DNA of 64,000 nt from Moniliella sp. 'wahieum' (Eukaryota), in contig RSEE01000012.1 in assembly GCA_003971905.1 (NCBI GenBank), positions 620,001 to 684,000 of the forward strand, given 5' to 3'. The notes under the pieces were generated by a model. The model was not told the origin of the DNA, did not search any database, and worked only from the letters and a program-made list of their open reading frames with translations. Of this stretch, positions 3,414-62,981 are shown one piece after another. The stretch's first letter is position 1, and each line of letters opens with the position of its first letter. Position numbers and translations under genes: made by a program.

Positions 3414-4088
3414 GGCGCGCACCAGGGCTAGCGAGATGAAGGCGGTGATGGGGGTGGGTGGGGGTGGTGGCGAGTCTGGGTAGGTGGTGGTCACCCAGCT
3501 CGGGGGGCAGCTGTGGGCAGCCACATGATGCGTGATGCATGATGCCTGGACTGACGGCCTGCCTTAGGACCGCATGACGTAATTGCGCTGGCAGCCGGTC
3601 GGTCTGTGCGCGCTCAGCCGCTCCACGAGCTTCAATAGCGGCGTGGTTGATTAATGTAGGTTTGGCTGTGTGGATGTGTTAGGGTGCTCGCGCAGCAGGC
3701 ACAAACGGCGCAGGCACAACAGAGCAGCACAGCGACGTGATCTGTTGCAACAACACCACATGTTTGGGCGACGTCCAGCCCTCCCTGTCAACACACACGC
3801 TGGATCTAACCCACAGGAGTTCGTGCATGGATATATGCGACCCCTGTGGTCTCTTTTCTCTGTTATCGTGACCCATCGGGGACGCGGGCAGCCCCGATTC
3901 AATCCAACATCATGTATCGTGTACTCCCTCTATAGTGATGATGGCCATTCCAACACCTGAGTACATGGTAACATTGATATGTTGATCATCCTTCGGCACA
4001 CCCTCTCGAGTACTGTGCGATCCCATGGAAAATATGAAAAGAAGTGAGTTTCGCGCACATCTCGCTCAAACGGCTTGACAATAAAGGG

Positions 4089-5886
4089 TTACGCGTGGGC
4101 GGAAGATGAGGGAACAGGGGCAATGGCCTGTCGCTGCAAGCGACGTTTCCTCCTCCTTCGTCGAGGTGCGATGGTATGTTTCTGCTCGCCCCAAACCATG
4201 ACACAAAATCCACAAAGAATCAAAGCGCACCCGATCAAGCCCAAGAAGGTGGGATGGCTACCCAAGGCCACATCTGCCACCTGCACCAGGATGGTGGTGA
4301 GCAGACATGAGACCGATGCAAGTACAGGCCCCCACAGGCCAAGCAAGATCGCTAGTACAAAACACAGGTTAGCTGGCAGTCGCCGGTACAAGAGAAGCAC
4401 GTACAGAAGCAAGCGTTAAACACAATCCCAAAGCCCGCCACACAGGCAAGGCTAACATACACCATGGGGTTTTGAGGGAGCTCGAACGGTTCCCAGTCCA
4501 TAATGTGCGCCAGGAGAACAACAGTCCACAGAAAGACAGCAGTGCAGAACCCAATAAGAGAAGTGACCAGACTGGCATGCAAACCAAAGGGGAGCGTCGG
4601 CGGGTGAGGGTCCCATCGTGCCCCATCCCGCTTGCGGGGGCGGGGAACTGGCAACGTTGTGCCTTCCGAAATGGTGGGCAAGCCTGCGTCTTCGCCATCC
4701 AGGGAGCTAGGTCGGGGTGCACCCAATGCACGCCCGCCGGTACTGCCCTCGGCATCTGTATCGGGAAGGGGCCAAGTCCTGCCGGAGCCAAGAGTGGTCT
4801 GAGTGGGAAAACGCTTGAAGTCGCTGTCACCCTGGATGGTGCTGCCGTCCAAGTCAGTTTCCGCATCGGTTTCCGTCTCAGTCTCGGTCTCGGTCTCGGT
4901 GTCAGTGTAGATCTGGGATTCGCGTAGACCCGCCGTATTATCCAGATCAGACTGGGGTGGTGGGAGAGGCTCGAGAGGTGGAAGCATATTTTCCCCTGGC
5001 AGCGTACCGAGCAACTTGAACAAAACTTCATACAGGCCCATGCTGATCGCTCCGAGCAGGGCAAGAAGGTCGCCTAGCAGGGCATTCGGGTACGGTGTGT
5101 CTTCCGTTTCCGTGCCACCATAGGCTGTCACGGTCACGCCCAGCACCGCGACGGCTGTGGCGATCACTTGAATGCCCGCCACTCGTCGCCCAAAATCCAG
5201 ACACTAAACACCAAGGCGGCTAGTGCATTGGTGTTATAAATAGCACTGATGTCACTCATGCGTGTGTATGGTACAGCCGCGTACCAGCTCATGGCCGCTA
5301 CGCCAACTCCAATGGTCAAGATGAAGCTTGAGCCCAAGCTGCGGAACAGCACTTGCGCGGTGGAAACGGCGGGCGGAGGCACAGCCCACATTTCTTTGAT
5401 TACCCGAGCGGCATCCTCGAGGTTTGCTTCGGCTGCTGTCGGAAGCGGTGGTGATGGGGCCTAGCAAGGACAGGGAGGGCCCGAGCATGCCATCGAATCG
5501 CCTTCCACATCCGCGGGAGGTAATACTTCCGGATGGACTTGCCCGTGCGGAGCTTGAGTCCGAGAAGATGAAGGGGGAGGATGAGAGGCAAACGTGCTGT
5601 GGCCCAGGTACAGGGACACAGAACGGGCTTGCGGTACCCCAATCCAGCTTGCACCCATGCCGCCGACTCGGTCTGGGCAGTGTAGGCAATCAAGCTGAGA
5701 ACGAACGCCCCTACGGCTGGATGGCCGCCCGGCAGCGCATCCAGCGCGGCAACCGCCCGCCGAGCAGGGGTAACGCCGGGCAGACGCTCCCACCAACGTG
5801 GAGCAGGTTCCGTGGGGCGCAATCGGGGTAGCAGGGGTGCGGGCCTCGGGCGCAGGGGGCAAGGACGCACTCGAGGGGCCCAGCAT
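4089..5886 (-). CDS. DMT superfamily (EamA/SLC35F, Thi74-like) transporter, frameshifted
   Basis: Stitched hydrophobic ORFs: AFVLSLIAYTAQTESAAWVQAGLGYRKP, SWYAAVPYTRMSDISAIYNTNALAALVFSVWIL, LLGDLLALLGAISMGLYEVLFK, LGLWGPVLASVSCLLTTILVQVAD. Long acidic cytosolic loop; probable intron ~4350-4408. Confidence 0.75.
4866..4902. repeat. 6-bp coding microsatellite encoding an ET repeat
   Basis: tcggtttccgtctcagtctcggtctcggtctcggtgtc; translates on the minus strand as DTETETETETET. Confidence 0.6.
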
Positions 5887-6169
5887 GGTGTGGAGCAAGG
5901 CCAGGAGGAGGCGGGGCGGGGGCGGCGTAGCAACTACTACGCCGGACGGAGTGGTGGTAGCTGGAGGGACCAGTGACCGGTGATGTTCCACGGGTGACCT
6001 GCGATCGGTGACAGGCTGGAAGCATGACAATCGAAGTCTCTTTGAATTCAACGTTCAAAAATCCTCATCGGTATCGCTTGGGTTCGTGCCTGGGCAGACG
6101 GATCTGTGACTCAGTTCTGAGGCTAAGCGCTGCGACGCTGAGGCTGAGGGCTACTGCGGCCTGCGGTCC

Positions 6170-6510
6170 CAGTGTCACATGCACGCGTCACGCGTCACGC
6201 GCCATGTGGGTGTGTGTCCCCTGTTGTTACGCGTCAGCATCATGCATCATGCATCATGCACCAGGGCCAGGTTTCGAGCCAACGTAGTCAACGTGGCCAA
6301 CGTCATGTCACGCATCATGCGTCACGCGTCACTAGTCACTCACTGGACTACACTGCGCCCGTCCTGGTCGTGCTCTTCCGACGTGTCTCTTGAAGCTTGA
6401 AGCTTGAGTAGCTTGAGCCAGTCACCTACTCACTAACTAGTGTTACTAGTTACTAGTCACTGGTCACTGGCAATCACCGGCCACATACAGCACGGTGACA
6501 TGTGACATGT
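6170..6510. repeat. Cluster of 7-bp-period palindromic micro-arrays
   Basis: (CACGCGT)n 6182-6201, (CATGCAT)n 6238-6260, (TGAAGCT)n 6391-6407, ACTAGT-T-ACTAGT 6445-6457, (GTGACAT)n 6495-6510. Confidence 0.8.
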
Positions 6511-6869
6511 TCCTACTCTGCGACCAACCGTGCCGAGCAAGCCCTGTGTGGCATCCCCTTGAGAGTCGCACCCACGACACCTCTAGCTGCCACCTTCGGA
6601 AGCTCAAGCACACCTCAAGAGCTATTGCATAAGCGCCCGCCGAAGATTGAAGGGCCCGTTTGGACCCGTTTTCCACCTCCGCTGAGCCGGTAGTCTTGGC
6701 TGTACCAATAAAACATCTGAGAGACAAAAGTATGGTATACACGCATTACGAATCGTGGGGACAAAATAGAAGGGTAGTAGCTGGATCATCAATCACAGCT
6801 CATTGAACAGAGGAAGGATAGATATGCCACAAGAGGCAACCGGAATTGCACGACCAAAGGCGGCGGTAA

Positions 6870-8647
6870 TTATGCCACGGGCGACTCCGAATGAGCTTCG
6901 TGCTCCTTGTCTTCCTTTTCCAAGTCCAGCGGCGCGACAGTGGCGATGTGCTTGTCGGCAAAGTCATTGTAGGGGAACGGCAAGGGATGTGCATCGGGCC
7001 GCACTCCCGTTGCAATCTCCACAATCTCGGGGTGGATGGTGGGGTAGGACCAACAAAGTGCCTCCGCGCCTCAAAGATCCAAGTCAACAGACAGAAGAGA
7101 GCGATCACGACTTCGACCACAATGGTCCAATTCATCTCGTTGCCCCCGGTCACCGGCACGGCGGTAGGGAAGAAGAAAAAGATGGTCGTGACCAAGTTGA
7201 AAGAGAGGGCAATCAGGTTGATCACCGGCCCGGCCCGACCAAGGTTCCAGCTCCGCTGTTGACCCGGCGGGACATACGCGTCGAGGATACCCCGGCCACG
7301 AAGAAGGATGATAACGACCGGGATCATGTAGGAGGTTTGGAAGTTGATAACGGACGAGTCCAGAATAGCACCGTAACCGGCCGGCGTGCCAAGGTAGATC
7401 AATCCAAAGACAGTCACCCAAAAACTGGTGAAGGTGATGGCCATGACGGGCGTGTGGAGGGTCTTGCTCTCATACTGCCACCAACGGTGGAAGAACAAGG
7501 CGCGGTCCATCGCTAGGGAATGGACGACACGCGAGGCTGCAGTGAGGATGCCCGTGGCAGCAAAACACATTGACAAGACGGGGAACATGATAAGACAGAT
7601 CGCACCGGCTTGATTGCGCGTAGCTTGGTACAGGATTTCCAGCAGGGGGCCCGCGCTCGACTCGATCACCGCGTCGTAGTTGGTCAAGCAAAAGAGCAAA
7701 ACGATGAGAAAGACAAGACTCAAGCTAGCGCCAAGCATGACAGCCATAACCATGACTGAAGAGAAACGGGGGTTAGTATATGGACGGGGGGGAAGACAGT
7801 GGAGAAATGTAGTAACGTACTTGCAGGAACGTACTTAGCCGGGTTGCTGACCTCCTCGGCAATGTGCAGTACGCCGTCGATGCCTAGTGGGCACAGAAGT
7901 GTTAGCGAATGAAGCGAGAGAGTATGTGGGGATCACAGACATACCAGTGAGGGAGAAGGCTGATTGAAGCAGGCCAAGAATCCAGGCCACGCCATCGGGC
8001 AGCCCAGTTTGGTTGACGAAAGAAGCAAAAACAAAGCGGCCAGTCTGGAATTTGCCCGAGGAGCAGGCAAGGCACACAATCGACATGACCGACACCGGCA
8101 ATCATCCACAGGAGGGAGGCGCGATTGACCATGTCAAGTAGCTTGATGCCAAACACATTGATGGCCCAGGCGCCAATGGTGAGGGCCAAGTAGATCAGGA
8201 AAACATGCCAGTTCTTCACCTCGTAGCTAGGATCGCGGAACGCGATGATGCCTGTAATGAATTGAGCAAAAATGGAGGAAGCCGAAGCTGTGACAGCGAT
8301 CCAGCCAGCACCGTTGATCCAAGCAGTGATGTAGGAGAGAACAACGCGGCGCTTGGTATACTCAATCCCTGGGGGTGCACAGAGCAGGTAAGCCCAACTC
8401 GAGACGCCAGACCAAATCGGGAGTACTGCGGCAATCTCGGCAAGTGAGAGGGCCATGCACAGGATTCCACACCAGCTAGCGACCATGCCCCAGTAACTGT
8501 TGGTCCACCCGACCCCAGTACAGTCGAGAGCGATCCGGATGCGGCGATGGCGCGAATTCAGAATAGACAGACTAACGCCCACGGCCGCCATAGGCCGAAG
8601 GACTTGCGCGGCATGGACGTAGGTGCCTCGCCAGGAACAAGTGGCAT
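6870..8647 (-). CDS. APC-family amino acid/choline/GABA permease (Hnm1/Uga4-like), frameshifted
   Basis: Motifs ALSLAEIAAVLP, SYITAWINGAGW, FVNQTGLPDGVAWILGLLQSAFSLTG, LTAASRVVHSLA, MNWTIVV. Introns ~7886-7943 and ~7757-7820. ATG 8647 (MPLVPGE); stop 6870 after a frameshift. Confidence 0.85.
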
Positions 8648-8653
8648 GGCAGC

Positions 8654-8675
8654 GGGGGGGGGGGGGGGGGGGGGG
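8654..8675 (+). repeat. Poly-G tract (22 nt); poly-C on the permease coding strand just 5' of the ATG
   Basis: Read directly from the sequence; homopolymer length is unreliable in this assembly. Confidence 0.85.
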
Positions 8676-10776
8676 ATGAGGCGGTTGGTTTGAAGTGTAG
8701 AGTTGGTAGCAATGTCAGCGGAAACGACGGTAGATGGTGCTCCTCGTTGCGTAGCTGGTAGCTTTTGGTGGTGGCAACACGAGGAGGGGCGGGGAGGGCA
8801 AGGAGTTAGGGACTCTGAGGAGGATGGGGAGTTAAGTGTGGTTGGGGAGAGAAGGAAAGAATCCCCATCCCTTGGTATCTGTCGGATTTATGGATCAAAA
8901 GATCATCGATCACCGAACAGGGCCCAACTTTGAAACGCGTGGCTGTTCGGAAGAGTGCGGCTCTGGGGGGCAGTGTGAGTATGACGCGGGACGCTGAGCG
9001 CGCTGTGCAACGGGGGAGTGGGAGGCCGAGATCTAACCCTGTCCCACAGATGGGGGTGGCTGACCCTGTGCAGAGGGGGCGGGCAGGCAGCGGGTAGGCC
9101 TGTGTTGCTGGCTTCGGGCTACACTGGCGCCTGGCCAAGAGACTGGAAAATGCCGAGCGAGCGGCGGCTCGATTTGGGCCAGGCGCGCTCTGTTCCCGGC
9201 CAGGTCTGATGAATGGGTCCGGTCACCGGTCAGATATAACTGGCAGTGCGTCAGGCTCAGCGCTTCCGCGCCCCGGTAGAACCTGGATGCGTTTACTAGT
9301 TGTTCCGTTGTTCTGCACCTCGTCGCACAGGGGCAGCCTGGAGCCGCGCGCTCAGGCTGAGCTCTCACAATTCGAGTTCCTGGGGTGACATGATGTGACG
9401 TGTGACATGCAGACGCGCTGACATACACTGGCGTGCTGCGATGCTGCGGATGTGGAGCACTGCGGCTTGGGCGAGTGATTCAGTGCGATGCCCTCCTGTT
9501 CCGGCGTTTGTGCCCGACGTCTCAGAATTAAGCCGCAGCGCTTCTGGCCCTTCTGATAAGCGCCCCAGCTTTCAAATTGCAACCTTCTGAGCATAGGACA
9601 GGGGGAGAGGCTGCTCCGACAGGCTCCGACCGACTGCCCTGGCTAGGCTATCTGCGCTCGGGACAACGTGCTAGTTCGCTACCGACATTTTCCTCTCTAC
9701 ACGGCGCGCCTTGGGGGCAGTGTCGCGCATATCATCCATGCCACTCCCACACACTGTTGACTACGTTTACTCCGTTGCGCGTTATCTGGGCCTCGTATTG
9801 ATGCGTAGCCAACCCCGCGCGGGCGCGCGAACCTTTCAACTTTCACATTTCATGTCCATTAGTTCAACGTTCATTTTCTTCCGCCAATGCGTAGACTGTG
9901 CATAAGGTAATCCACGCGCTTAGCTAAGCCGTTACCTGCCCAGCCCCACTCTCGGGTTTGTATCGTTGCAGCTCATCGAGCTCGCTGGATAGTTATTTTT
10001 TGGCCACCGCTGCCAGCTCCAAACCTTGCCCAACCCTGCGACTGGCGCGTCATTTCGTTGAACGAGATCTCAAGAGCGACAAGTTCTGGACTGGTCCCGG
10101 GTTTGACATCTCCCTGAAGCTTGAAGGGGGCTCTACACCGACATTATTGTGCCATATTATCCGGCTGCGGCCATTGACCCCACTCGTTCGACAAGCCCCC
10201 CTGATTGAGTCTCTCAGGGCGAGGTGTTGAACTTTAGCTGCGCGGATGGTGTTTCATCTCTCGAAAAATCCAGAAAGGTTGGGAGTGATCGGCCACAGAG
10301 GCCCTTAGGCTTGAGCCATGGCATGAGCGACGTGCAGTCCTGCCTATACTTCTACCATCTGTAAGCCAGGTAGAAATCATGGGCCCCACACCTGCTGTAT
10401 TCGTTGGGCCACAGCCCAAAATCCTCATGCGAGTCAGCTGACCTGCCGGTCCCAGTGATCACGCCCGGTCAATGACATGCTATAATGCTCCATTGAAGCG
10501 ATTCGCGGTGGCCGGAAAGTAGTGTCTGACTGTCCATGGCCTAGACCCCTTGGACTCCAGAGCTCTGACCTCTGTGACCTCTACGCGGGGGTCGTGATGT
10601 TTCTCTCTCCGTCGAGGGAGGATATGGACCGGGAGAAATTACTGGAGGAGACCTGTCAGATGTCAGACCTGAGGCTTGCCTGCAATCTGGACAGTCGTTG
10701 GACACCGCTGAAGAGGCATCGTGCTGGCATCACTGTCACTGGGGCCTGTCAACTGCGCCGATACATGGTCAAAACA

Positions 10777-11893
10777 TCAAATCATACTCAGGCGTTGGTA
10801 TGCAGGGCTGGCCGCCTCGTACTCGGTCAGGAAGATGCTGTCTTTTTTGGACGCGAGAAACCTACCATCACAAGTCAGGCCAGGCCCAAAGATTATGTGA
10901 AGAGATGGACGTACTGAAGCAAATCCTCAAGAAACCCTTTGAGCGCCAGCACCGCTTCCTGGTCCATGAAAGTGAGCGATACCAGGCGCGGCATATCGAT
11001 CAGTAGCCTAAGGAGGTGTTCTGCGCCATAGATGCTGCTTGGCTCGACCACATTCCATGGTTCATCCCCCTTTGCGCTGGCAGATAATTTCCTCTTTTTG
11101 ACGGGTGGGTCGTCTTCCTTTGGGACCAGTCCCTTCCCAGTCTTGAGATCCACGCCCTTCTCCATCCGCTCCTCGTACACCTTCTTCCGTTCCTGGGTAA
11201 GCTGGAGTCGTTCAAACTTGTAGAGCAGGCCATGAGACAGGGCAGCATCAAAGTACGTTTTCAAATCGGCCACCACTTCCTCCAGCAAAAGGGGCGGCAA
11301 GTCCTTGGAAGGTGATGCCAAGACATGGGCACGGTACTCCTCCAAAATCTCCATCACAGTAGGGGACCGTGGTAGTGGGACAAGACGGTTTTGTTTCGTC
11401 ACTCGTTCCCAGTCGTCTACGACTGGAGCTTGAGACTCTCTGGAAAGACAAGCCTCATTTCTGGTGTTTTGGCCTGCTCCTCTTCGATTTCGGCGTCCCG
11501 AGACCGCTTGGTGCTCCTGGTAGACTCTTTCTTCTTTGGGGGAGGCTCCTCAGCGCGCTCAGGTGCTTCGAGTAACCGCTTCTCCTCCTCCCTCCACCTC
11601 GTTTCCAGTTCCTTCTTCACCGCAAGATTTTCATCTGTCATTTTCAAAATCCGCGACTCCGAAACCCACTCGTCCCATCTGGTTGGCGTCAGAACTAGAA
11701 GCAGTAGGATGAGGGCGAGGAAGATGAGGCAAGCGACGTACGAGGTTTTCCATCCGACGTAGTGGACGAGGTAGTGGGGCCCAGTGTGTCCAGCAGGTTC
11801 TTCATCGCCCTTCTTGTCGAGTTTGAGGATCTTGGCAGGGTAGAGAAGTGAGCCGTGGTAGCACAGCACCTTTTCGTGCGCGGCAAATTGCAT
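10777..11893 (-). CDS. EAF3: Chromodomain/MRG protein, NuA4/Rpd3S subunit
   Basis: Chromo-barrel MQFAAHEKVLCYHGSLLYPAKI..HYLVHYVGWK..WDEWV. MRG motifs RLVPLPRSPTV, YFDAAL..LLYKFER, IYGAEHLLRLL. After an intron ~10862-10914 the last exon reads FLASKKDSIFLTEYEAASPAYQRLSMI*. Confidence 0.93.
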
Positions 11894-12421
11894 GGTGGTG
11901 GTGAGGATCCGACGCGACTCGCGACTTGGCCACAGCGGAGGGGCCAAATGAGAATGGTAATGATTAGGTAAGCGATGATCGCCGTCCCCTCATTAGCCTG
12001 ATTAATGATTGGCCTCAATAACCTCACTAACGTTCTGACTGCAAGTGGTGGCCTTTGGCGTAGTCTTTGAACGCCCTTTTCCGAGTGTCTGGACGGCATG
12101 CTAATAGAGGAGATTATAATTGAAAAGCGCACATTGGTGCAACCAAGATGTGTCGGGGTCGTCAAAACCTCTAAGTAGACATAAGAGGGAAGCATTGGGA
12201 CGGCAAAATGAATGAAGAGAGTGCCAGGGAGTGTGAGCTCCATGTCCTGCATAACGATCAAGGCGAAAAAGAAACGCAGCCACAGGGAGCGAGTTCAGTT
12301 GGTCTGCTAAAATAAATGGCGTTGAGATGGAAATAGTAAGGATTGCGGAAGATACGGTCGCATGGAGAGAGATGTACCAAAGTATGGAAATGTGCGAAAG
12401 GGATGCGCAAAGGCACACGGA

Positions 12422-13748: not shown

Positions 13749-14861
13749 GGTCGTGGAGTGAGTGATGGGGTGGGCGCTGAGCTGTGGTGAACGCTGGCTG
13801 GACTGAGCTGTACCTGGACGGTAGCGAGGAGAGAGGTGGGGTGGAGGTGGAAGGCGAGAAAGACAGGTGGCGACATGCTCACGGGGAGGAGAACCGATGA
13901 GCGCTGAGTGTGAGCGCGTGAGCCCCACCTTGGGCAAGCGCGAGATCCCAGGGCGCTCGTCGCCCCCGGCCACGGCGCAAGCGTCATGCATTGCAGATCA
14001 CTGATCCGCGGTTGTCTCGGGCACTGGGCACCTGGGGTCGCACTTGCGGAGGAGGACACTTCCCCTGTGCTACTGGGGGCACGGCGGCAGCCCGCTCGCC
14101 TCCTCCCCGCGCGTTCGCCCAGGGCAGCGGCGTGCCGCAGTGCAGATCGCACGCAGCTCGGCTGCTGTCGTTTCGCAGCCGACTGTAGCCGTTAGACGAA
14201 AGGGTCCACATGTACAGGCCGTAACGCGTAACGCGTAACCGGTGCTCAGCCGCTCACCAGAATAATTAAGCCTGGCCACCTTCGGCCAACAACCCTTAAC
14301 AGCAACGGGTTGCGGGCCCTTCACCTGGGCCACATCTCCTGCGTCTCAGATTTTACTCTCCTGGCTTTACTTTTCTCACTAGGTACTGTGTAGATATGTG
14401 TTGTGCCTGACGGTGCGCGGCAGGCATGGGCGACAGTGTCAGCGTCTCCGAGCACGTAACCAACAGTGGTAAATTATGTCGCTAAGATTTAACAGGCTGG
14501 GATGCCTGCTTGGACCGGTAAGTTTGAGGAAGTCGGAGACGCCGTAGCAGATGACCTGTGGTGAAGTTGAGATGTTTACACAAACAATAAATGAGCTGGA
14601 CCCTGCTGGACCTCCATGCTCAAAGTTGAAGTTGAAGCTTGAAGCTTGAAGGTTGACCACAGGCCTTTAGCCCAAACACGCATTATCATGACCCTGCTTC
14701 ATGTGATTTGTCCCATTACTTTTAGCATGGACAGGGCGGTGTCGTATTCCTATCCACTCCTAAGGTGTGCAGCTGGCCGGAACATACCTGGAAAAAACGA
14801 GTCCCTTTTGAGATGAGTGCCAGATTGGCAAACCAATTCTTTCGAGACCAGAAATCATTAA

Positions 14862-16248
14862 TCACTCCTCCTGCTCCGTAACATGAACCTGCTCTTCGCT
14901 CACACCCGACGCAATGGCAAGTGCTGCCGGAGCCTGTATGTCGGTTCGGGGCAAAGGGTGACCGAAATCGTCAATGCCCAAGCTGGCTTGGCGGAATTTC
15001 CAAACAATGCACATAACCAATAGGGTACCTTGGAGGGTGCCCGTAAAACAATACGCCAGAACGCTGGTCCAGTTCACCCCAGGACGAAGCAGAAGACTGT
15101 AGATGAAAACAGCCGTGCCGGGGGTCTGGACGAGCATTGTTGGAATCGACAAAGAGCCGACAAGACGGCGGGTCGCCGTATAGTGCAGCTGCGGAAGATA
15201 TTGAGCTGTCGCCAAAACGGTAGCTGTGACCCCAAGGAAGGCCGCCCATCCACTGAGGAGTTTGGCGGGGCTGATCTGAGACCCTGATGGCGGGGATGGC
15301 TCTGGACCAAACGTGTTCCCAGGCAGGGAGAACACGATGATCATGGTTACAGATCCCACAAAAAGCAAGTGAATCAGACAAATCCATGCAAGGGCAGTCG
15401 CCAGCCCCATTCATACGTTTTAGTCTGCCATTTGCTCCGGATCTCCTCCGCCAGAGACCAAACATGCTCGACATGCCTGCCCGTGATGGCTCCGCAATGG
15501 TAACCCGCTTTTGCACAGGAGTGCGGATACCAGAAGCACCAATCGGGTTGAGGGCGCCATCGGCACCTTGGCGCGCGGGGGTAGAGCTGGGCATCGAGAG
15601 GGGAGAGGGGGGACCACCCTGCCGCCCTGAGGCGCCTTCCACATCGGCCAAAAGGAAGGGACGAGGCGGGCAAAGGCGCTGCTGCTTACCTCCTCTTCCT
15701 CGGCGCGTAGTTCGGCATCAGTGAAACGGGCAATGGTCGATTGGGTTGGGGTCTGATCGACCGCCGAGTCAATCGCACTCGCTCCCTCTTCCTCGGAAAA
15801 AGCCCGAGTCCCCCCCCTCATCATCAGAGAGGGCCACAGCGTTTTCGTACCTCTCCTCAAGAGGATAGTAGTACAGATACAGTCCAAAACTGATGTGTGG
15901 GTAAGTCAAGGAACAGAAAAGGGGGGGGGCACGGGAGGGGGCGTACATAATCAAGCCGAAGACCCATTGGAGGCCAACTTGCACGGCGCCCAAAAGACCT
16001 TCAAGGCACAATCCTGTTCCCAGTTGGGAGCAACACCGAACACTCCCCACTGCAGAGACAGGACATTGAAGAAACCCGAGGTGTGAGCTGTGACGCCGAG
16101 GAAAAGGTACCAAGGCGAAAATCCAAGTGAATTCTCCCAGACAAAACGGATGATTGGGGAGCATACGAGAAGGCGAGCCGGCTAGGAGGAATGTACCAGG
16201 AATGAAACCGAACCAATCGTGCTCCACATGGCACTGGTCCGACGACAT
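14862..16248 (-). CDS. PQ-loop repeat membrane protein, frameshifted
   Basis: N-terminal SYAPQ segment and a second loop ATAQYLPQLHYT..VGSLSIPTMLVQTPG; multiple transmembrane segments; intron ~15891-15948. Confidence 0.85.
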
Positions 16249-18184: not shown

Positions 18185-19252
18185 GGGTGATGGACGGATG
18201 GACGGATGGATGGACGGTGGGTTGCTTGGTTGGTTGGCGGGTGAGGGCGCTGAGCCTGAGCAGCGGGGGTTACCCACGGCAACGACAAAAGAAGGAAAAA
18301 TGAGTTCTGAAATCCAGGTAATTAAAGATGCTTTCATTTTTCCTGGCGAAGTGGCGCTGTCGCAGCGGAATTGGGAAGACATCATGCATCATGCACCATC
18401 GACACCATCATCCATGCCGCTTAGTGCTGCAGGGCTTAGCTTAGCGCATACGTTTCAATTGCCGTTTCCAATTAGCTGCATGGAAGATCATCGATCATCG
18501 ATCATCGATCACGGTCACAGATCATCCATCGGTGGCTCGATGCAAAGCGAGAGAGCATCATGTGTCCCATCAGGTGCATCAGTGTTGTTGGCTACGCCAC
18601 ACTTCATCAGCTTCATCATATACGCGGGACAGAACCCCCACTGAGAGGGGGGTTAGAAATCGGAGCTTAGCGCCATTATCATAATCGGATGCAGCGGCCA
18701 ATCTGTCCACATGTTGAGTGAAACGACCAGGACTGATGTGTGCCGAACAGAAGCGCTGTGTGGGCGGGGGCGGCAGGCTTTTTGGCGAGAGGGAACACCA
18801 GGATTTGTATGTATGGGCGAACACAATAACCTTTTGGTATAGTTCATGGAGAAATTGTCAGGAGACACGTGAGATGGAAGAAAGGGAGCAGATAGATTGG
18901 ATACTTCAACGATGGCCAAGTCGTACTTAGGCAAAGACGAAGTCGACGGTAACGAAGTGGTTAAGGCACCTCCCACCGAACCAAAGGAACACAGGTCTAT
19001 CATGGCGTTCAAGAACTTATTCACTCTTCATCTCTTGGCGGATCCGTCAGCAAGGGCGGGTTGAAATGCTATCGAGGGTGACTACAGTAGCGGCGGTAGA
19101 TGCAAGGCCAGAGTTACAATTTTTGTCGAGTATTACAAGCAGAAATTGTGGCCAAAGAGGGACAAGAAAAAAGGGGAAAGGACACTCTGCATTGTTGAAC
19201 ACCGGGAGGCAGGGGGGCTACCATGTGCACCGCCCACATATGCCCGATGACT

Positions 19253-20962
19253 CTAGTTGTTCATGTAAGAACTCGAGTCATCGTGTCGGGCAGCTCAGGG
19301 ATGGCAACCTCGAAACGGGACTGAATCATCCAGCACCTTCTGGTCCTCCTCCGACGAGACAAACATGATGGCCAAGCCCTTCGTGCCAAAACGGCCGGCA
19401 CGTCCAACACGGTGAAGGTACGAGTCCGCATCCCCGGGCGTGTCGTAGGAGATGGAGACGTTGACCCGCTCTACGTCGATACCACGACCGAAGATGTCCG
19501 TGGCAACGAGAATGCGCTTCTCAAAGTTCTTGAACTGCTGGTACCGCTTGATCCGCTCCTCCTGCGGCAGCGAACCATGGATAGAGATGGAGGGGAAGTT
19601 GCATTCCTGCAGCAGCTTGTCCAGCTGGTTCGCCCGCGAGACCGACTTGACAAAGATGATGACTTGGTTGAACTCAAGCGTGTCGAGCAGGTCGTTGAGC
19701 TTACGGTTCTTCTGTCCCTCTTCCAGACGGACATAGTGCTGCTGAAGGCCGTGCAGCGTGAGCTTGGTCTCGTCATCAACGTAAATCTCAAGTGGGTTCT
19801 GCATAAACTTCTTGCAGACAGTGCGAATCTCCTTCGCCAGCGTGGCAGAGAACATCATCACTTGCTTGTGGTGGGGCGTGGCACGGAAAATCTCCTGGAC
19901 ATCGCGGCGCATGTCAATCGTATCGAGCATCTTGTCACACTCGTCCAGCACAAGTGCTTACCCCAGTAGGCTTGAGTGACTTGTCTCGCACAAGCGCGTT
20001 CATCCGCCCAGGAGTACCGACGAGAATGTGGGGGCAACGCGCCTTGTCCTTCAGCAGCGCCTGGTCCTCTTTGATGGGGTACCTCCATAGACAACCGAGG
20101 TGCGCACCTCGGGCATGTACTTCGAGAAACGGAGGTACTCATTTTTGATCTGGAACGCCAACTCACGCGTGTGGCACATAACAATGACGCTCACCTCTCC
20201 ATCCACGGGCTCAATTGTTGCAGCGTCGCCAAAACAAACACAGCAGTTTTACCCACCCGACTTGGCCTGGCACAACACGTCCATACCGAGGATTGACTGG
20301 GGAATACACTCTTGTTGCACTGGATAGGGGAAGGAACAGAGGGTCAGGGCACCGTCACAGTGTAGATTCAATAGGACGTACCTTCCGAAGGGTGCTCGAA
20401 TCCAAGATCGCTAATGGCGCGCAGGAGCTCTGGCTTGAGCAAAAAGTCACGGAACCCAGTCGAGTGGATACCAACATAGGAACCCTGACCGAGGTGAAGA
20501 GAGAATGGTAAGTAATGGTCGGCGAAGCTGGAAGGGGGTAGACAGATTCGCTAGTCGGTGCGGTGCGTTCCTAGGCTTGCCTGGCAAAGGTACAACGGCG
20601 GTTGCAGAGAACCGTGGAGGGACGGGGCCCGACGCGTCAAGGCATCCAACGGCCTGGCCTGGGGGCCGAATGAGCAAAAGGACGCGTCGCACTGGTGCAA
20701 CGGCAGCGCCGAAAACGCGGAATAGTGCACCGATCCCGAGAATACGAAGAAGAGGGTGGGGAAAGGGACTAGGACTAAGATGGTATGCTGACCTTTTTGG
20801 CGCCGTCGGCTTCGGCCGGGGCAGCGTCGGTGGTGGCCTCGCCGTTGGTGGCGGCGGGGGCGGGAGCGACGATCTCCTCTTCGTAGTCGATAAGACTGGG
20901 TAGGCCGGGGATCAGTACGACGTGACGTGAAGACAGACAGCACACTACTCTTCGTTGTCCAT
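19253..20962 (-). CDS. SUB2: DECD-box RNA helicase Sub2/UAP56
   Basis: [86 protein letters not shown]. Introns ~20896-20948, 20485-20792 and ~20324-20381; several single-base frameshifts. Confidence 0.96.
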
Positions 20963-21892
20963 GGCGAGGAGTGGAGTGGGGGGCGCACTGGGTGGTGGTG
21001 GCCAGAAGAAGCTGGCTTCCTCGCCTCGCGTCTGGTGCAGGCAGGGCCGGTGCTTTGGCAGTAAACACGGCAGCAACACCCGGCTGATGTAAGCGCTATG
21101 GCACCCCACCAGTCTTGCTCAGGCCTAGCACCAGACCCAGACTCGCACTGCGCCAGTGCCTCGGGCGTCGTGTGCCGCGGAATCAGGTGGGCGGAACAGA
21201 TGAACGTGGTGCTGATGGGTGGTTGGGTACGTTGCCCTATCTTGTCCCGGCCGCACTGCCATGCCCCCCTTGACAAGAGGTAAAGATGCGCGATGCGGAT
21301 CGACCGCCATCTCATCTTCGTTCCTTGTCCAGAGCGCTCTGGGTTGATCGGCACATTCGTTATGCTCACGCACCATGGTGGGAATGTGGGAAACTTGATA
21401 ATTGCCGTTTCAGTCTCGCACTTCTTGCTTGGGGGTGGGGGTTGCGGTGCCACAGGAATGCCCCTTGACTAGCGACTTGCCTCGTTTTTTGTTGCTGTGC
21501 ACTATCTCATTCCATACAAATGTCATTTTCCAAACACTCTTCCTACTGGGAAGCCTCGGGCCCCTGCACGCGTTAATCTTCATATCATTATAGGAGGGTG
21601 GGTTCTGGTCCTGTGGCATTTGCCCTTGCCTGAACTGCAGAGGGTATCTGCAGCGCTACAGGCACGTCCAGCAGACCGGCACCACAATGGCTTTTGATGA
21701 CTTTGCCCCTTCCTCTTATAGACCCCTAGATGAGTCTCACCAAATCTTGGTTCAAGACAACAAGGTAGGTCAGTTATGATCCATCGCCATAGGTCTCGGT
21801 CCTCGTCCTTCTTTCCAAGTGACGGACGACGAGCACCCATCATTCGCATTGGTCTTGTTCGTGAAGGGGGCACAAGTAAAATGCTTTCATTA

Positions 21893-27564: not shown

Positions 27565-28076
27565 TCCGACGGCAACGGCAGGCACGGCGCAGAGTAGAGT
27601 GGTGGCCAGGAGAGGCGGGCGGCGGGCGTAGGCACGCCCGACTCGAACGGGGCGTGGCCTGGAACTGGCGGAAGTGGCGGAACTGGCGGCGGTGCTCTCC
27701 GCCGCCGCGCGGAGGCAGCACGGCGCCAGCCAGGCGTAGTTCGAACGGCCGCACACGCGCCTGGTGCCGCGGGTGCCATCACGCTGCCCATCACATGCTG
27801 AGGTAAGACGCGTGACGCGTGACGGGCGTGCGATTGCGGTCGAACCAAGCAGTCACAGCTATAGATATCTACACGGGGCCCTCGAGCAACTGGGCAGGCA
27901 TGATGCATGGCAGGCTGTATTGGATCGGCCGCATGGGAGCGGCGCGGCATGCTTTTGCTGCTGGCCGCCCAGACGCGAGGCGGCCAGAGAGGATGCTCGG
28001 GCGTGGGGGCAGCCCAGACGGGCGCGACGAGGGCTGTGCACATGGCGTCGGTGCACACGACGAGGATGGGTCGCGG

Positions 28077-45395: not shown

Positions 45396-46474
45396 CCTTT
45401 CACGGTCCTTCCCTCCTACTCCTATCCTCTATTGATCGTTCCCCCTCCCCCCCGTCCTCCCTTGGCGCTCTGCCTCAAACTTTTCTCTTTCTGTTTCCGA
45501 ATCCTCCTGTCTCTAAGAACCTGTTTGGCATGTCAGTATGTATTGCTGTTACATGGAAAACGTCCGGCGCGAACGCTGGACAGTTGTGGGTCGATTGCCC
45601 GGTGCGATGAGGGCCACCAATTTGACAGCGGCAAAAGTACTTAAGCGGAGTCAGACGGAGTCCTGAAGAAGAGAAAGCGCTACTGCCAAGAGTAACCGCT
45701 TGCAGTGTAATCGAGACGTGAGTCGTAAATTCGTAAGGGTGGCAGAAGAAGGTGGAAGGGCTATAAACAGAATATAGGCAACTTTCCAGAAAGGATAAAG
45801 ACTAATATACCAGCCCGCGTGCTCAGCGCTCACAAAGCACAAAGCATCTAGTACCGTAAGTCCGATCGCCCCTGGCTCTCCATGGAAAGGATCCGCGGCA
45901 TGGATAAGGTGTCCCCTGTTGGCTCTCTCACGCTAATAGTCTAACGGGACTGACGAGTGTTTGGATGAGATGTCTACGACATGCGGGGCTCAGCGTCTGG
46001 GGATAACGGGTAACCGGAGCGCCCCGTAACACCGTACGCCCACCACCACCTCGGTCATCCTCCCAGCTCCCCGTCATGTCACCTGGAAACCGCGGTCACA
46101 TGCACCGGTCACATAGCAAACATGCCTCTCGCCGCTATAGTTCGAATGCAACATCTTCTGTTACTAGTAGACAACCCCTAATTCTTCCCCCCCGTCTCCG
46201 GGCTCCATCTACACTGGTTCTGCGAATGACAGCTGTGGGTGCTCGATTGCGCATGGAGCCAATGATGGGTATAGCTGTTTATGAGATAACTTGACCCCGT
46301 CTACTTAGATGGCCATACCCCACTCCTTGTGGGAAGAATGAACAATCGGAAGGTTCCTTCAGTTGGCCGTACGGACCGACCAGCGGTCTGTTTCTCGGGT
46401 TCTGCAATTCCCTGCTCGACATCACTTTTCATCTCGCGATTGTGCCAAACAAAGATGCTTGCAATGATCTCGGC

Positions 46475-46840
46475 ATCTCTACTATCATATATCACGCATC
46501 ATGAAAACACCTGCACGCATATTGTGGGCCATGTTCCTTCCCGCTTCTCTCACTGCTCGTGCACAAAGGAGACCCCTGTAGAGCCACCCTGTAGAGCCAC
46601 CCTGTAAAGCCACCGTAGGTGGCTCCTGTGTTTTTTTGTTTTGGCCAAGGTGCCTTCAGTCCCGCCTCAGGCCTAGGAGTTCCGTTGCGCTCCTGTTTTC
46701 CTGTTCCTCAGGCTGGCCCCTGTGGTATGGACTGAAGGCTTGACGTTCCTTTGTAGGCATTGTGGTTTAGACGACTACCACCACGACCAGTGCGATTGCA
46801 TCATCCTCGAGGACCATGGACTCCAGGTCTTATCAATCTC
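46475..46840 (-). repeat. Dispersed repeat copy A (inverted relative to copy B)
   Basis: 46665-46687 is the exact reverse complement of 51021-51043; 46788-46817 matches the reverse complement of 50881-50910 at 29/30; 46475-46484 is the reverse complement of 51155-51164. Confidence 0.85.
46574..46612 (+). repeat. 13-bp tandem repeat x3 (CCCTGTAGAGCCA)
   Basis: Two exact units and one with a G>A change, running into the hairpin AGCCACC-gta-GGTGGCT (46608-46624). Confidence 0.9.
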
Positions 46841-48115: not shown

Positions 48116-48257
48116 CGGGAGGGAGCAGTGGTATTCTTGCGCTCGCCGGCTGAGCGCCGGGCTGTGCGACCGAAAGTGACTAGTGAAGTGAAGAGCAACA
48201 GAGCTTGAAGGCAAGCGCGGAGACGGACCAGGAGTCGGGCGTGCTCAATGGATAATC

Positions 48258-50854: not shown

Positions 50855-51165
50855 GGCGGCTGATGAGACCTGGTGTCCGGATGGTCCTCGAGGGTGATGC
50901 AATCGCACTGATGGTGGTGGCTATGGTCTAAGCCAACCAGCAACGCCTACTGAGGAACATCAATCAGCGAGTCGCCACCAGGGGCTAAGCTGCGGAACAA
51001 GGAAAAACAGGAGAGAAAAACAACGGAACTCCTAGGCCTGAGGAGGAACTGAAGGGACATTGGCCAAAGCACGAGCCACCCGGTGGCTCAACAGCGGCCC
51101 AGCCGCGCATGCGATACAGGAGGGGACAGGTCCAGCATCAGAAGAGAACGAGCGTAGTAGAGATC
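50855..51165 (+). repeat. Dispersed repeat copy B (inverted relative to copy A)
   Basis: Same collinear matching blocks as copy A; contains the hairpin GAGCCAC-ccg-GTGGCTC (51073-51089). Confidence 0.85.
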
Positions 51166-51531
51166 TCAGATCTCATGAGAATGTATCACATCCATCCATG
51201 TATCGCCAGGAGACAGAGAGAAAAGGATGTGGGGCTTAGGCAATAAGGTCGATACCCACAGCAGTGCAAATGGGAATGTGGTATCCAAGTCAGGTCAATG
51301 CACATTGCATCACAGGTACGAAAGAGATCTCTTGTTATGCATAGGAAGTAACTGCACGAAATTTGGGATCGTTATCGCGCCACCAATTACCGTTTCCTCC
51401 AAGCAGGGCTCTAGGCAAAAGGAGGGGCCGGGGAGAGGGGAGAGAAGGGGAGGAGGCATGCGAGATATGACGCAAGGTGAACCAAGGAGATACAAAGGAG
51501 GAATGATTGGGGCACACCAGGTGCTGAAATC

Positions 51532-54402: not shown

Positions 54403-55287
54403 AGGGACAGGAGGGAAGCAAAGAAAGTAGGGCGGGAGATGGAGGCCGCCAGCGGAGATCGAGGGAGAGGGAGAGGCGACGCGAAAGGAGATGTGGCGGA
54501 AGAGAAGATAGAGGATGGATATATGAATACGACTAGTGCGAGGATGGAAGTGAGGATGGGAGTAGTGATGGTGGAGCCCAAGAAGACCATCTCGCTCGTC
54601 CCGAAGTAAGGTAGTATCAAGGAGAAGCCCAAAGTGCACCTCGTGTTGCAGGCCGGCTATGCTATCGGAGATCATCGATCATCGATCAGGCGATCTGAAG
54701 TGCAATCTGACTGCCCCCGTGGCTGCGCTTGAGGCCGGCGAGCCTCACCGGGACTTGTGGAGTGCTGGGGAGAGGGGCAGTGGAGGGGGCGCCCATCCCG
54801 GTGACTGCACCCGTGCGGCTTGCGCCACCTTCACTGCTCCCGTGTTGATTCCGTACTCTGTGCCCCCCCACCTGGCCGGGGGAGGCCAGGCGCTCTGCCT
54901 GGGCGAGCACCGCTAAGTGGCAAAGGAAAGGCACAGCGCCAGTGCTCTGCCCCTTGCCGCGCCCGCGCGAGCATCAACACTGCCCGTATGCTGGTCAGCG
55001 GACGCCACTGTGTTTCGCTTGCGCAAGCTTGCGCCCAAGGTTGTTGGGGGCCGGCGGGGCATGGGATTGAGCAGTGGGACTGATGGATACTTCTCCCCTC
55101 TCCATCTAGGCGCTCGCCAGGAGGCTCGAATCAACACCCCAACCACCAGCTTCTAGAGGCTACCATATGTCCTAAAGGGAATCAACAGCCCTTGGTGTGT
55201 CGCTCCACTTGCCCTAGTCACCGCCGTCAGTTCCAACGGGGAAGAAGATGAGCGAAGGAAAACGAATACAATATCGTAACTGCCGTA

Positions 55288-57230: not shown

Positions 57231-58405
57231 CGTGGGTGGAGGGAAAGTTGAGGCGGTGGCGGAGGGAAGATGGTGTGGCTGGATTAAAGTGGCTTAAAGT
57301 GGCCACTTGGTTTAGTGACATTGGAAAGGCGTCACGAGATGTCTCGTACTAATTCGAGGTGCCTGAGCGCTGAGATAGCTGATAGCGCCTGTCAAGAGCC
57401 AAGTTTAACTGGTACTGAGCCTGAGCAGAAGCCCTCAGCTCGGCCGACCTGGCCGACCGCAGGCCTCAGCGAGCGCTCAGCGCTTGGCTCGCCTCAGGTC
57501 GCAAACTCAGAATACCAGGCGGGGTATAAGTTTCAGCTACAAGTTGAATCCAAAAGTCTTCCGCTTAATGCGGAGCCCCCCAGTCTTTCCCCACGGGGGT
57601 TAGCCGCTCCACTCGATCGCGGATGGACACAGTGTCGCGCACACGAGCTCAGGAGAAGCCCTCTCCTGCACAGACAATCGCCATTCAAGAGGCTCCAATC
57701 GGCGGAATCCCCGTGGTCTCGAATAAAATTCAACTATAGGACTACGAGAGGGGGAGCGAATGAAGTCGTACTAGCAGCGGGAGGCATGTTGGAGAGAGAA
57801 AAAGATGTATTACACCCAGATCCCAGCGAACTGCAATGATTGCGACATCCAGACCTTAGGGCCAGATCATCGATCGCCTGCCCCTCATAGAGCTCCTTGA
57901 TGACCGCAAGGGATGGCGAAACGCGATGGAGGGGATCCAGGCAATTGCTTCCAGTGGGGAGAGGTGCTATGCTGATATGTCGGAGCAAGTGTCGAAGGGG
58001 GACCGCAAGGGAAGAGAGTGAGATGCTGCAAACATGAGGAGAGTGCTTTCGATTCTGTCTGCAGAGACCGAGGCAAACCATGGTGCGCCTCAGCGGTTAG
58101 CCGAGCAACTCACAAGGACCAAAATTCCAGACAACCAAAGCAACACTATACTGGACGCTATCGTGTGGTGTCACAACACCGCTCTCCTCGCTTCCCAACT
58201 CCTTCTTTCTGTGTCGCATCATTGAACCGCCTTATGCCTCCTCTCGAACATCGATGACCGCGGCCATCCCCGATCTCTTGACCCAACTTGGCACTCGCGA
58301 CTTGAAATGCAGGGGAAGGCAATAGCAATAGAAATGGGATGGGGGACAGAGGGAAAGGGCCAGGGGGCAGGAGGGAAGAACAGCAGGTAGGATCGCTGGC
58401 TGCAT

Positions 58406-60291: not shown

Positions 60292-62293
60292 CTGCTGCAG
60301 CAGCCCCCTCTACCTACCCTCTGGGCAAGCGGCAAGCTCCAGAGGGCGACTCTTCCCGTCCAATTCCCAATGCGTCTCAATCGCCTGTTGCCCCCGTTGG
60401 CAGCACCATAGCCCCCCGTCCCAGCGTTGGCTCGGGCAATGGGGACAAGAAGTCGGACGGTACCAATCCTGGTATTTTTACCGTCGCCATTGCCGGCCGC
60501 CCTTTTTGCAGTAGTTATCGGGCTGGCTCTGATACGGTTGGTTTACCGCCACCGCAATGGCCAACCCTTTTTCGGGACAAACCCCTCGGCCACGACCTCG
60601 CGTGCAGCTGCCACTCGTGCCACTCCAACCACGGCGGGTGCAACTGCCGGCGCTGCTGCAGGCACCGACGATACCACGCCTCGGTCGGCTATCGTAACTG
60701 TGGATGATCCATTGAAGCCACCTAAGTTGTGGGACGCCAAAGTTGCCGACTTTGATACTCTGGCCACCTTGGGCTATGCATACCCGGCTCTGACAATAAG
60801 GCAACTGGCCACAACGCTTGGGATCGCATCATGCCTGTCGCCGCTGCCCTCTCTCCGCAATTGTACCCCATTTTATTTGCTGATCAGGCCGAGAGCAACG
60901 CTCGTACAACGTCGGCCTCCCCTGCTGATACCAGTGAAGTCCGGGCCGGATCAAGTCGATGCGAAAGGGTGGTGGGGCCACGGCTACAAGTCCGGGGGGG
61001 CAGGACCGGATGAAGGCGATTCATTGGGGAATGAGCCTACGCCTGCGAGCGTCAATGTGACTGTGCTCATTGCAATGCCGAACCCATCGACAGTGGTGCC
61101 GTCCAGCTCGGGAGGGCCCCGTTGCCGGCGGCACGAGTGCAGATGCTACAATCGGAAGCGGGTGTGGCCCCCATGTCGGCTGCGTCCAAGATGGCCCGTC
61201 ATGCCTCTATGCGTTCTACCCGCTCCAATCGCTCCTTCCGTTCGATGCGTTCTTTTGCCTCTGCTCGTTCTGTCGCCTCTGCTCGCCGGTCTGCCTTCTT
61301 TGGTGCCGATTATGACCCCGCCATTGACACAGCAGCAGACAAGGAAGAAAAGAACAAGAACAGAATGCGGGTCGACCTGATGGACGCTGAGCCAACCGGC
61401 CGCTTGAGCGATGCTGGCTCTTCCTCTGAGGACAACAAGGCTGGCGACGATGTGGATGACGATGACGATGATAACGATGACGACGCTGAGGCGGAAGGAA
61501 TTCTTTCTGAGCTCATGTTTGGCACCGCCTCCGTTCCTATCTATACACTCCATTCTGCTTCCAACCCCAACCGGATTCCCTCGCGGTCAGGGTCCAGTGT
61601 GTATACGGGCGGGTTCAGCTACTCTTCTCGCGCACCACCCTCGCGAAATGACTTGTATGCCTTGTTGGCTCGCGCCCAGGATGTCAGAGACAACAAACCA
61701 ATCCCACCGATGAACATACTACTGCATCCACCGAAGCCGTCCCTGGCTCAGCGGGGGCCCAATTGGCACCGCCCCAAGCGGGCGTGCAGCCGACACGTGT
61801 CCCTTCGGTTCTGGGTGCTCCGGGGGCGCCTGCACGATCGGTAGTGGGAAGTGTCCACTCGGTCTCGCACCCACTCGCCAGCTCTCCGCCTCCACTTGCC
61901 GTGTCTCCCCCCCGATGCGTCTGAGCGTTTCTACCCAGTATGCCGTGCCGCTTCAGCCGCCGGCGACCCGGCTCGGTCGTTCCCGCCGTACGAGCTTTGG
62001 GCAACGCATCGCCTGCACCCATGCCTCCGTTGGCCACTCAGGACTTTTCCCTCTCCCCCTTGCCCAATCCGTGGAACTCATCGCCGTCGCCGTCTCCGTC
62101 GCCCATTGGCCCGCATGGTATACCCCCGCGCTCGTTCTCGGGTGCGCCCGCAGCGGACCTTCGGGTGGTAGAGGAAGAGGAGCCGTCCAGCCCGGGGGCA
62201 GGGCCGGTGGCCCCCCCTCCGCTCGCCCGCCCGACTGCTACCCGCTCTGCCCACGCCCGATACGATCTCGCGTGGCTCGGCTCGCTGCAGTGA
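60270..62293 (+). CDS. Uncharacterised single-pass membrane protein, frameshifted; ends uncertain
   Basis: KRQ followed by a Ser/Pro linker, TM segment IFTVAIA-AALFAVVIGLALIRL, then KPPKLWD, VTVLIAMP, an acidic run and ELMFGTASVP. Confidence 0.55.
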
Positions 62294-62981
62294 TTGGTAG
62301 CTCGCCCATGTTGGTTGGTGTTGTGGTCTTTGCGTCGCCTCTTCCGATCCGTCAGGGAATGTGCGTATGGTGCGGCGCTGCCGTCCTGCCGCTTTGGTTA
62401 TTAGGGGATCTCGGTCCTACTTCCCCCCCCCCCGCCCTTCCGCCGCAGAGACAATGTTGATATCTACCGCCCCCGCGTTTAGCCCCCCGCTGCCTGTATG
62501 TTGATCCGCGCATATCCCCTGTCGCATGCATGTGTTGGAACGAGTCTGTTAGGTAGCCAGGCCTGCGCCGAGGGAAGGAAGAGGGCAGCCGGCGATGGTG
62601 TTAAGCGGGTGCTAAGAGAGGCTATCATTCATTCCGAACCAGATTAAGCAGGGTGTTACATACTACGAGGCCTGTCGCATGGTGGCGCCACAACACGTTT
62701 CCATTTCAAAATTGCACATGGCATCACTGGAGCAGAGGGATGCTAGGGTTGGCTTTGCTCTGCTTGCTCGGTGACGCGTGACGCGTGATTACTGATTAAT
62801 GACCTTCTCGCTGGCACGGCTGGCGCGGTGGGACGGGATGGGGCCGGCAGGTTGCAGAAGCACTCGAGTACTCGAGCTCAAGCGGCAAGCACTCAGCGCC
62901 TACCTAGGAAACGCCGGCGGTGCCTTGTTGTGCCACCATCTCCGCCCACCTGTCAGACCCTGGCCACCGCCTCCAGCGTCC

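Follow-up and report, generated by a model that had tools for sequence, protein, structure and literature searches.

The DNA analysed here, a window of 64 kb, spans positions 620,001 to 684,000 of contig RSEE01000012.1 (C12) in the genome assembly of Moniliella sp. 'wahieum' (GCA_003971905.1; 69.5 Mb in 223 contigs), and our subject is a short palindromic repeat scattered through its non-coding parts. The genes of the window are fungal and include MRG/EAF3, Tra1, Vps3844, a UAP56-type helicase and RPL24; their nearest named proteins are basidiomycete, at 43% for EAF3 and 85–86% for the helicase (in Tilletia, Calocera and Jaminaea), which suggests a position near the smut fungi. Tra1 (33485–45395), EAF3 (10790–11895) and the helicase (19295–20965) are each spread over several frames with no obvious introns at some of the breaks, which suggests indel errors of the assembly. 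Positions 5200–9600 match contigs C8 (1015144–1018411) and C23 (689495–692775) at 78–81%, while C8 and C23 are about 94–95% alike and syntenic along the stretches sampled. With one copy at about 80% and two at about 94–95%, the assembly looks like that of a hybrid or polyploid.

An earlier note on this window had listed sites at which two TGA trinucleotides enclose a self-complementary tetranucleotide, often in arrays with a 7-bp period, and had proposed that a rule of symmetry, and not one motif, is the constant feature. A core made of T-X-A, a palindromic 4-mer and a second T-X-A, with the spacer that had been given, stands at all 25 of the listed coordinates, two of which (14222 and 6443) are TAA/TTA versions. 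Here X and N stand for any base, ab and cd for the two bases to its left and to its right, b'a' and d'c' for their reverse complements, and L-numbers for individual fetched stretches of this genome. The window contains 38 TGA-N4-TGA with a palindromic spacer, compared with 2.0 ± 1.3 (maximum 7) in 200 dinucleotide shuffles of its 1-kb blocks, counted on both strands; the non-palindromic versions are at chance (31 vs 31.9). This comparison, which the earlier note had proposed, bears out the excess. For wider counts we added 60 evenly spaced 10-kb stretches of contigs C1–C11, taken without regard to the motif, giving a count base of 664 kb. This 600-kb sample has 419 palindromic and 387 non-palindromic TGA-N4-TGA, with all 16 palindromic spacers represented, as well as 96 palindromic and 65 non-palindromic TAA-N4-TAA. 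Across the whole genome, a 17-base CGCG array has 500 exact matches and its reversed control none. A rule limited to TGA can be discarded, as TAA and TTA behave likewise: the anchor is T-any-A (TGA, TCA, TAA or TTA), with the same middle base required on both sides, and the repeat architecture of the earlier note stands without its restriction to TGA. Among perfect period-7 arrays, 201 of 399 consist of a 6-bp palindrome, nearly always A...T, plus one base, which together with the use of every spacer agrees with the proposed symmetry. No such excess is seen at other periods (4–6 and 8–15). A hairpin at TNA was also tried as the basic unit and rejected, with non-palindromic arms just 1.6-fold over chance and palindromic ones 42-fold. 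As a comparator we fetched 80 loci around helicase relatives in metagenomes and merged them by identity to 59 non-redundant loci (421,844 bases; unannotated, some transcript-like or gene-dense), where the twelve-base form occurs five times per 22,196 TNA sites, compared with 45 per 2,432 in the window. A literature search, thin in its coverage of subscription journals and without supplements, turned up no paper on the pattern.

The repeats avoid coding DNA. None of the 45 twelve-base forms falls within the 9,726 Pfam-covered coding bases of the window, and none within the 11.9-kb Tra1 span. Per 10 kb, the bin that looks least like coding DNA has 14.7 loci and the one that looks most like it 0.16, by a score that penalises stop codons and is therefore partly circular. 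The earlier note had placed the repeats in non-coding DNA, mostly upstream of genes; the first part holds, and promoters are not the only location, as the sites at 45823 and 46485 lie in a spacer, one such, where Tra1 and RPL24 converge with their 3' ends. Clustering is modest (78 gaps of 15–100 bp vs 50 ± 6). Density also declines with the GC content of the stretch (Spearman −0.52, L006–L065), a trend that may reflect subgenome or gene density. The sample contains 347 loci, which extrapolates to about 40,000 in the genome.

Copying of the flanks and the sizes of the products

In most repeats the spacer is a palindrome copied from the two bases beside the anchor. Perfect runs peak in length at 12, 19 and 26 bases, and the commonest 12-mers are a mirror pair, TXA-cd-d'c'-TXA-cd (75) and ab-TXA-b'a'-ab-TXA (60). 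At 48,314 TNA sites of the 664 kb the first of these forms was counted 633 times, and at 12 control centres, with 263,143 sites between them, 39 times. Each of the four bases occurs as X, and the form depends on the first T, the count being 19, 52 and 26 when A, C or G stands in its place. Of 447 chains, 423 have a single spacer, and 345 of these match the left flank, the right flank or both, with 78 matching neither. The other 24 have mixed spacers, and 15 of them read exactly as copies of the left flank followed by copies of the right, for which chance would give about 1 in 256 each. Chains with several units of the same spacer number 60 of the 447, and slippage probably adds units to these. 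The longest perfect array seen has 68 bases of an AGCT unit (L064:6955–7022).

Within the window, 24 of 32 chains have a spacer copied from the flanking two bases. The individual sites, which we call scars in keeping with the mutational origin argued below, are as follows, where left- or right-templated names the flank from which the spacer was copied.

3533–3544: TGA-TGCA-TGA-TG, +7 scar with spacer from the right flank
5322–5331: core only, probably by chance; the surrounding coding-like stretch is conserved (78%) in both duplicates
5974–5983: core only, TGA-CCGG-TGA, flanks off the rule; decayed scar or chance
6048–6057: core only, TCA-ACGT-TCA, flanks off the rule
6186–6199: CG-TCA-CGCG-TCA-CG, scar at a self-complementary 7-mer
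6238–6258: TGCA array, two units
6320–6340: mixed chain CG-TCA-CGCG-TCA-CTAG-TCA-CT, one left- and one right-templated event at one TCA
6389–6407: AGCT array, two units, left-templated
6443–6454: TTA-CTAG-TTA-CT (TTA version), right-templated
6496–6507: TGA-CATG-TGA-CA, right-templated
8901–8912: GA-TCA-TCGA-TCA, left-templated
9221–9232: GG-TCA-CCGG-TCA, left-templated
9862–9873: GT-TCA-ACGT-TCA, left-templated, absent from the earlier list
10115–10126: TGA-AGCT-TGA-AG, right-templated, absent from the earlier list
11999–12010: TGA-TTAA-TGA-TT, right-templated
13898–13907: core only, TGA-GCGC-TGA, each flank one base off the rule
14220–14238: CG-TAA-CGCG-TAA-CGCG-TAA (TAA version), two units, left-templated
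14633–14651: AGCT array, two units, right-templated
14853–14864: AA-TCA-TTAA-TCA, left-templated
18380–18393: CA-TCA-TGCA-TCA-TG, scar at a self-complementary 7-mer
18486–18511: TCGA array, three units, left-templated
18602–18617, minus strand: +9 form, GATGAAG duplicated in full (7 bp), the copies separated by two inverted bases
24553–24562: core only, TGA-TATA-TGA, flanks off the rule
27811–27824: CG-TGA-CGCG-TGA-CG
32620–32631: GC-TGA-GCGC-TGA, left-templated
45821–45832: GC-TCA-GCGC-TCA, left-templated, in the convergent Tra1/RPL24 spacer
46483–46494: TA-TCA-TATA-TCA, left-templated, in the same convergent Tra1/RPL24 spacer, absent from the earlier list
48175–48186: AG-TGA-CTAG-TGA, left-templated, absent from the earlier list
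51164–51175: TC-TCA-GATC-TCA, left-templated
54670–54688: TCGA array, two units, left-templated
57364–57373: core only, TGA-GCGC-TGA, each flank one base off the rule
62772–62802: CGCG array of two units, then in register TGA-TTAC-TGA-TTAA-TGA, outer flanks off the rule; may be a decayed chain

Other product sizes accompany the 7-base one. The +9 form, in which all 7 bp are duplicated and two inverted bases separate the copies, occurs 36 times at non-palindromic TNA sites and 11 times at controls; the +8 form is found 56 and 21 times, respectively, and the +11 form, whose inverted bases come from the two sides together, at four TNA sites and no control. A duplication of 8 bp is not enriched (1 at TNA, 2 at controls), and from these forms together we conclude that the duplicated unit is capped at 7 bp centred on TNA. 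Also without enrichment at TNA are +5, +6, a pure 5-bp duplication, and three inverted bases with a 6-bp duplication. Odd spacers of 5 bases are palindromic near chance (37 of 362 with TGA, 1 of 54 with TAA), compared with 457 of 875 for 4-base spacers. One-unit scars occur at self-complementary 7-mers 66 times and elsewhere 229 times, about four times the 1-in-16 share, and this excess may be explained if matching sticky ends there would rejoin cleanly. Flank base preference is flat, except that AT-only pairs are scarce.

Turnover between duplicate regions

The duplicate regions of the genome allow the repeats to be followed as they come and go. We compared 15 pairs of stretches (90,186 aligned columns, 3.0% substitutions), of which 11 were picked by position alone and four via window or transposase queries; one of these four, L071/L072, came to light through a match to an array and is a biased choice. 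There are 34 indels of 7 bases, compared with 19, 21, 5 and 13 for 5, 6, 8 and 9 bases, and in 16 of them the long allele has the form. Subtracting these leaves 18, which is comparable to the neighbouring sizes. The share bearing the form is 9 of 22 in the position-only pairs and 7 of 12 in the other four. In 14 of the 16 the short allele has no core, which, together with the mixed chains, leads us to reject a slippage-born microsatellite as the origin, though slippage may extend a chain later. Clean before-and-after pairs are TCA-GA and TCA-GA-TC-TCA-GA (L077/L078), AC-TCA and AC-TCA-GT-AC-TCA (L079/L080), and GG-TGA and GG-TGA-CC-GG-TGA (L095/L097); L087/L088 shows a double step of +14, and two +9 pairs were also seen. 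Array copy number differs between duplicates as well. Separately, indels of 13–18 bases lie near T-N-A in L050/L092, L085/L086 and L087/L088, and some contain longer inverted copies of the site, perhaps as rarer outcomes of the same repair.

The cores are not conserved. A site held by a factor would be expected to change more slowly and to keep its position, but of 76 cores seen in either duplicate just 16 are identical, with 17 substituted and 43 gapped. Among the 33 ungapped cores the identical fraction is 0.485, compared with 0.67 expected under neutrality, and mismatch between duplicates is higher in the core (7.9%) than in the flank (4.3%). The six-site cluster at 6186–6510 is absent from both duplicate promoters, whose flanking genes are about 80% identical. 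Since most form-bearing indels have no core in the short allele, and the cores are not conserved, the pattern is very probably a mutational scar and not a conserved binding site.

An excision model and the search for its element

The arrays were probably left behind on excision by a cut-and-paste DNA transposon that duplicates 7 bp of its target at T-any-A. In this model the element would insert at ab-TXA-cd and duplicate those 7 bp. As the geometry suggests, excision would then close each flank into a hairpin, flush with the duplication's end, in the manner of RAG and Transib, and a host nuclease would open the hairpins 2 nt past the tip, leaving two palindromic 4-nt 3' overhangs, cd-d'c' and b'a'-ab. 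Joining that mostly keeps one overhang would yield the +7 product, ab-TXA-cd-d'c'-TXA-cd or its mirror; more rarely, less trimming would give +8 and +9, and both overhangs kept would give +11. The predicted +7, +8, +9 and +11 products were each found, and the next size up was not. Each scar would bring new TXA sites and one self-complementary 7-mer, at which further hits, together with slippage, could lengthen the chain by 7 bp at a time. Since +7 shifts the reading frame, scars persist in non-coding DNA alone. The products, flank templating, the 7-bp ceiling, presence or absence in duplicates and non-conservation are observations, for which the model postulates an element, an enzyme and a hairpin. 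With 19 events per 2,646 substitutions between duplicates, and a yeast-like mutation rate, a rough estimate is about one jump per thousands of generations, a rate at which a low copy number of the element would be tolerable.

A search for candidate enzymes returned EnSpm-type (PF02992, Tnp2) transposase genes on contigs C17, C62 and C34. The domain matches in C17 with an E-value of 1e-12 and in C34 below the cut-off, and the C62 copy is 50% alike at the protein level. Of the four DNA-transposase families tested (PF02992, PF05699, PF10551, PF18758) this is the sole one that matched. The hAT dimerisation domain PF05699 had no matches, its control also matching nowhere, and the same was true of the KDZ domain PF18758; the MULE domain PF10551 gave no candidates in a search that was not exhaustive and whose control matched in 3 of 14 genomes. 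The C17 frame, the C34 frame and a distant relative, P0061, were also used in protein searches, which uncovered no element with ends. Longer relatives of the C17 frame numbered none by word-index search and 437 by HMMER, the best at 29% identity. The C34 gene (L096:3180–3250 and 3260–6693) lies in three frames; no terminal inverted repeat was found for it, and a short tandem repeat of GATTCAG type stands just past its 3' end. Any link of the EnSpm-like genes to the scars is hypothetical.

The repeat families in the sample are only long terminal repeat-like and small non-coding ones. Among dispersed non-coding repeats, one of about 220 bp, 75–89% identical, lies in the window at 50860–51093 (plus strand) and 46637–46835 (minus strand), and also in L016, L083, L095 and L097. 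It has a sharp start at CTGATGAG and may represent either a gene for a small RNA or a mobile element of short length; Rfam at its gathering score has no match in the window, this repeat included. A second, of 100–190 bp, lies at 45837–46026 and in L034, L083, L084 and L095, often less than 1 kb from the first and in either relative orientation.

Among known systems, flank hairpins are established for hAT, Transib, RAG and MULE (PMC5499845), and opening 2 nt past the hairpin tip for Pso2 and Artemis (PMC3299998). RAG1/2 coding-joint P nucleotides and Transib share with the scars inverted bases copied from the flank, an even palindrome flush with the break and the 2-nt offset (PMC5499845, PMC3299998). 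In the 664 kb the inserted bases are likewise the reverse complement of the flank and make an even palindrome, and the +9 and +11 products retain a fixed-length duplication remnant on both sides; unlike the RAG and Transib products, the scars have a 7-bp TNA-centred target, one dominant product and the standing of a genome-wide repeat class. By geometry, then, the mode of action resembles a RAG/Transib footprint, and we assign it to no named superfamily.

EnSpm and Transib are placed in one clade (CMCT) with RAG1-like motifs (PMC12730594), and the EnSpm/CACTA group, kin of Transib and RAG1, is the one, of the four families tested, whose transposase domain matched in this genome. CMCT elements, Transib included, make 2–5-bp duplications, and fungal EnSpm make 3-bp duplications with CAC..GTG ends (PMC12730594); no CA..TG termini with a 2–5-bp duplication, and no ends, were found at the three genes here. 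Duplications of 7 bp are given for hAT7 of rust fungi and for Kyakuja (KDZ) of Agaricomycetes (PMC12730594). Kyakuja shares this length with the scars, and its domain had no match here, with an uninformative control. hAT elements (Ac/Ds, hAT7) also leave short palindromic insertions at the empty site, and hAT7 has the 7-bp duplication. Ac/Ds palindromes are centred on the complement of the element-bordering base and are hence odd (PMC5873905), whereas the new palindrome of the scars is even and odd 5-base spacers are near chance; on this point the scars are unlike a hAT footprint.

Hairpin-prone microsatellites such as (CNG)n are a known class of repeat. The arrays resemble them in having a palindrome plus one base as the unit and a copy number that varies between duplicates; they differ in arising in one step from unrepeated DNA, at period 7 only and with A...T ends only.

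Competing explanations and implications

Several findings weigh against an excised transposon. In 949,340 bases, or 1.4% of the genome, no element with inverted repeats and a flanking 7-bp TNA duplication came to light, nor did any shared sequence after T-N-A-N-N that would point to element ends. At the three EnSpm-like genes neither inverted ends nor a 7-bp duplication were seen; C17 and C62 carry the same locus in duplicate (93%), with broken frames, and DNA searches with the C34 region returned no second copy of its gene. About 40,000 scars is a large number for so few transposase genes. Known CMCT duplications are 2–5 bp, whereas the one inferred for the scars is 7 bp (PMC12730594), and the +7 product is far more uniform than the Ac/Ds footprints, of which 28 types were recorded in 128 clones (PMC5873905). 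A bare 7-bp duplication, one that lacks inverted bases, is about as frequent at TNA as at controls (34 per centre). There is no mirrored left/right flank base preference (Spearman 0.08, n = 216), so it is the duplication length by itself that supports a symmetric 7-bp target. Finally, the indels between duplicates are unpolarised, as no outgroup aligns in the intergenic DNA, and some short alleles could be slippage deletions.

Two of the rivals are mutational as well. A domesticated transposase or other host enzyme might make the same staggered break and hairpins at TNA without lasting cargo, or with a tiny insert that always leaves. Dense and recently turned-over scars with no element in 949 kb would fit such an enzyme, as would EnSpm-like genes without recognisable ends, one locus of which is kept in two duplicate regions. 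However, the frames of the C17 and C62 genes are broken, and in DDE strand-transfer chemistry a filled-in 7-bp duplication with flush hairpins needs DNA between the copies; we consider this option improbable. Short-range template switching during replication, a process reportedly documented in other genomes, would have the nascent strand copy 2–3 bases of the opposite strand and return 7 bases back, with slippage extending the product. That product is formally an inverted micro-copy plus a duplication, as observed; the same-spacer multi-unit chains need slippage or repeated hits, and a few of the longer indels contain inverted copies near TNA. Yet switching does not account for the strict T-N-A, the constant 7-base period or the limit of the duplication at exactly 7 bp, other periods lack the palindrome-plus-one excess, several of the clean before-and-after pairs have no homology beyond one T, and the comparator loci carry few of the forms. 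We give it little credence. The earlier note had itself offered a template-switch mutational process: a mutational process is upheld, and a plain replication switch fits poorly with the fixed 7-bp unit, the two inverted bases and the need for T-N-A.

The note's other options were a promoter factor reading TGA half-sites plus DNA shape, and a nucleosome or hairpin signal. Selected promoter or chromatin elements would agree with the strongly non-coding distribution and the modest clustering, and ACGCGT, a known motif, occurs in some units. But every one of the 16 spacers and of the four X occurs, the flanking bases determine the spacer, ungapped cores are less often identical than under neutrality with more than half of the 76 gapped, the 6186–6510 cluster is missing from both duplicate promoters, and sites stand in the convergent spacer. 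For the class, the promoter-factor reading is largely refuted and highly improbable, while single arrays could still be co-opted; flank-copied spacers, turnover of the cores and the missing cluster tell against a nucleosome or hairpin signal. An artefact of long-read basecalling, amplification or assembly might be suspected from the many genes with frame breaks that resemble long-read indel errors. It can be almost entirely dismissed: in duplicate contigs that were assembled separately, 16 cores recur unchanged at corresponding positions and another 17 recur with substitutions, none of the forms lies in the Pfam-covered coding bases, and mixed chains are flank-templated.

Excision footprints with P nucleotides are already known. 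What appears to be new is the combination of a 7-bp TNA target and flush hairpins, along with the uniformity of the product and the scale, in a comparison that did not extend to the target sequences of hAT7 and Kyakuja. A bolder reading, which we regard as doubtful, is that a RAG/Transib-like enzyme of the EnSpm clade with a hitherto unrecorded 7-bp TNA target has come to act, in this lineage of fungi, as a standing endogenous mutator with little or no lasting cargo; if true, regulatory DNA would receive about one stereotyped insertion per 150 substitutions, and palindromic microsatellites of a new class would arise there, along with new motifs for factors to bind. If excision footprints are the right explanation, some 40,000 traces of a single break-and-repair reaction would be preserved in the genome and would serve as a natural, genome-wide record of how a fungus opens hairpins and joins ends. 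They would point to a transposase that pairs a 7-bp TNA target with RAG-like flush hairpins, a pairing so far unrecorded, and would show how, in one step, a transposon can seed tandem repeats of a whole class within regulatory DNA. The case is also a caution that what looks like a striking 'grammar' between genes can be a mutational signature rather than a binding code.

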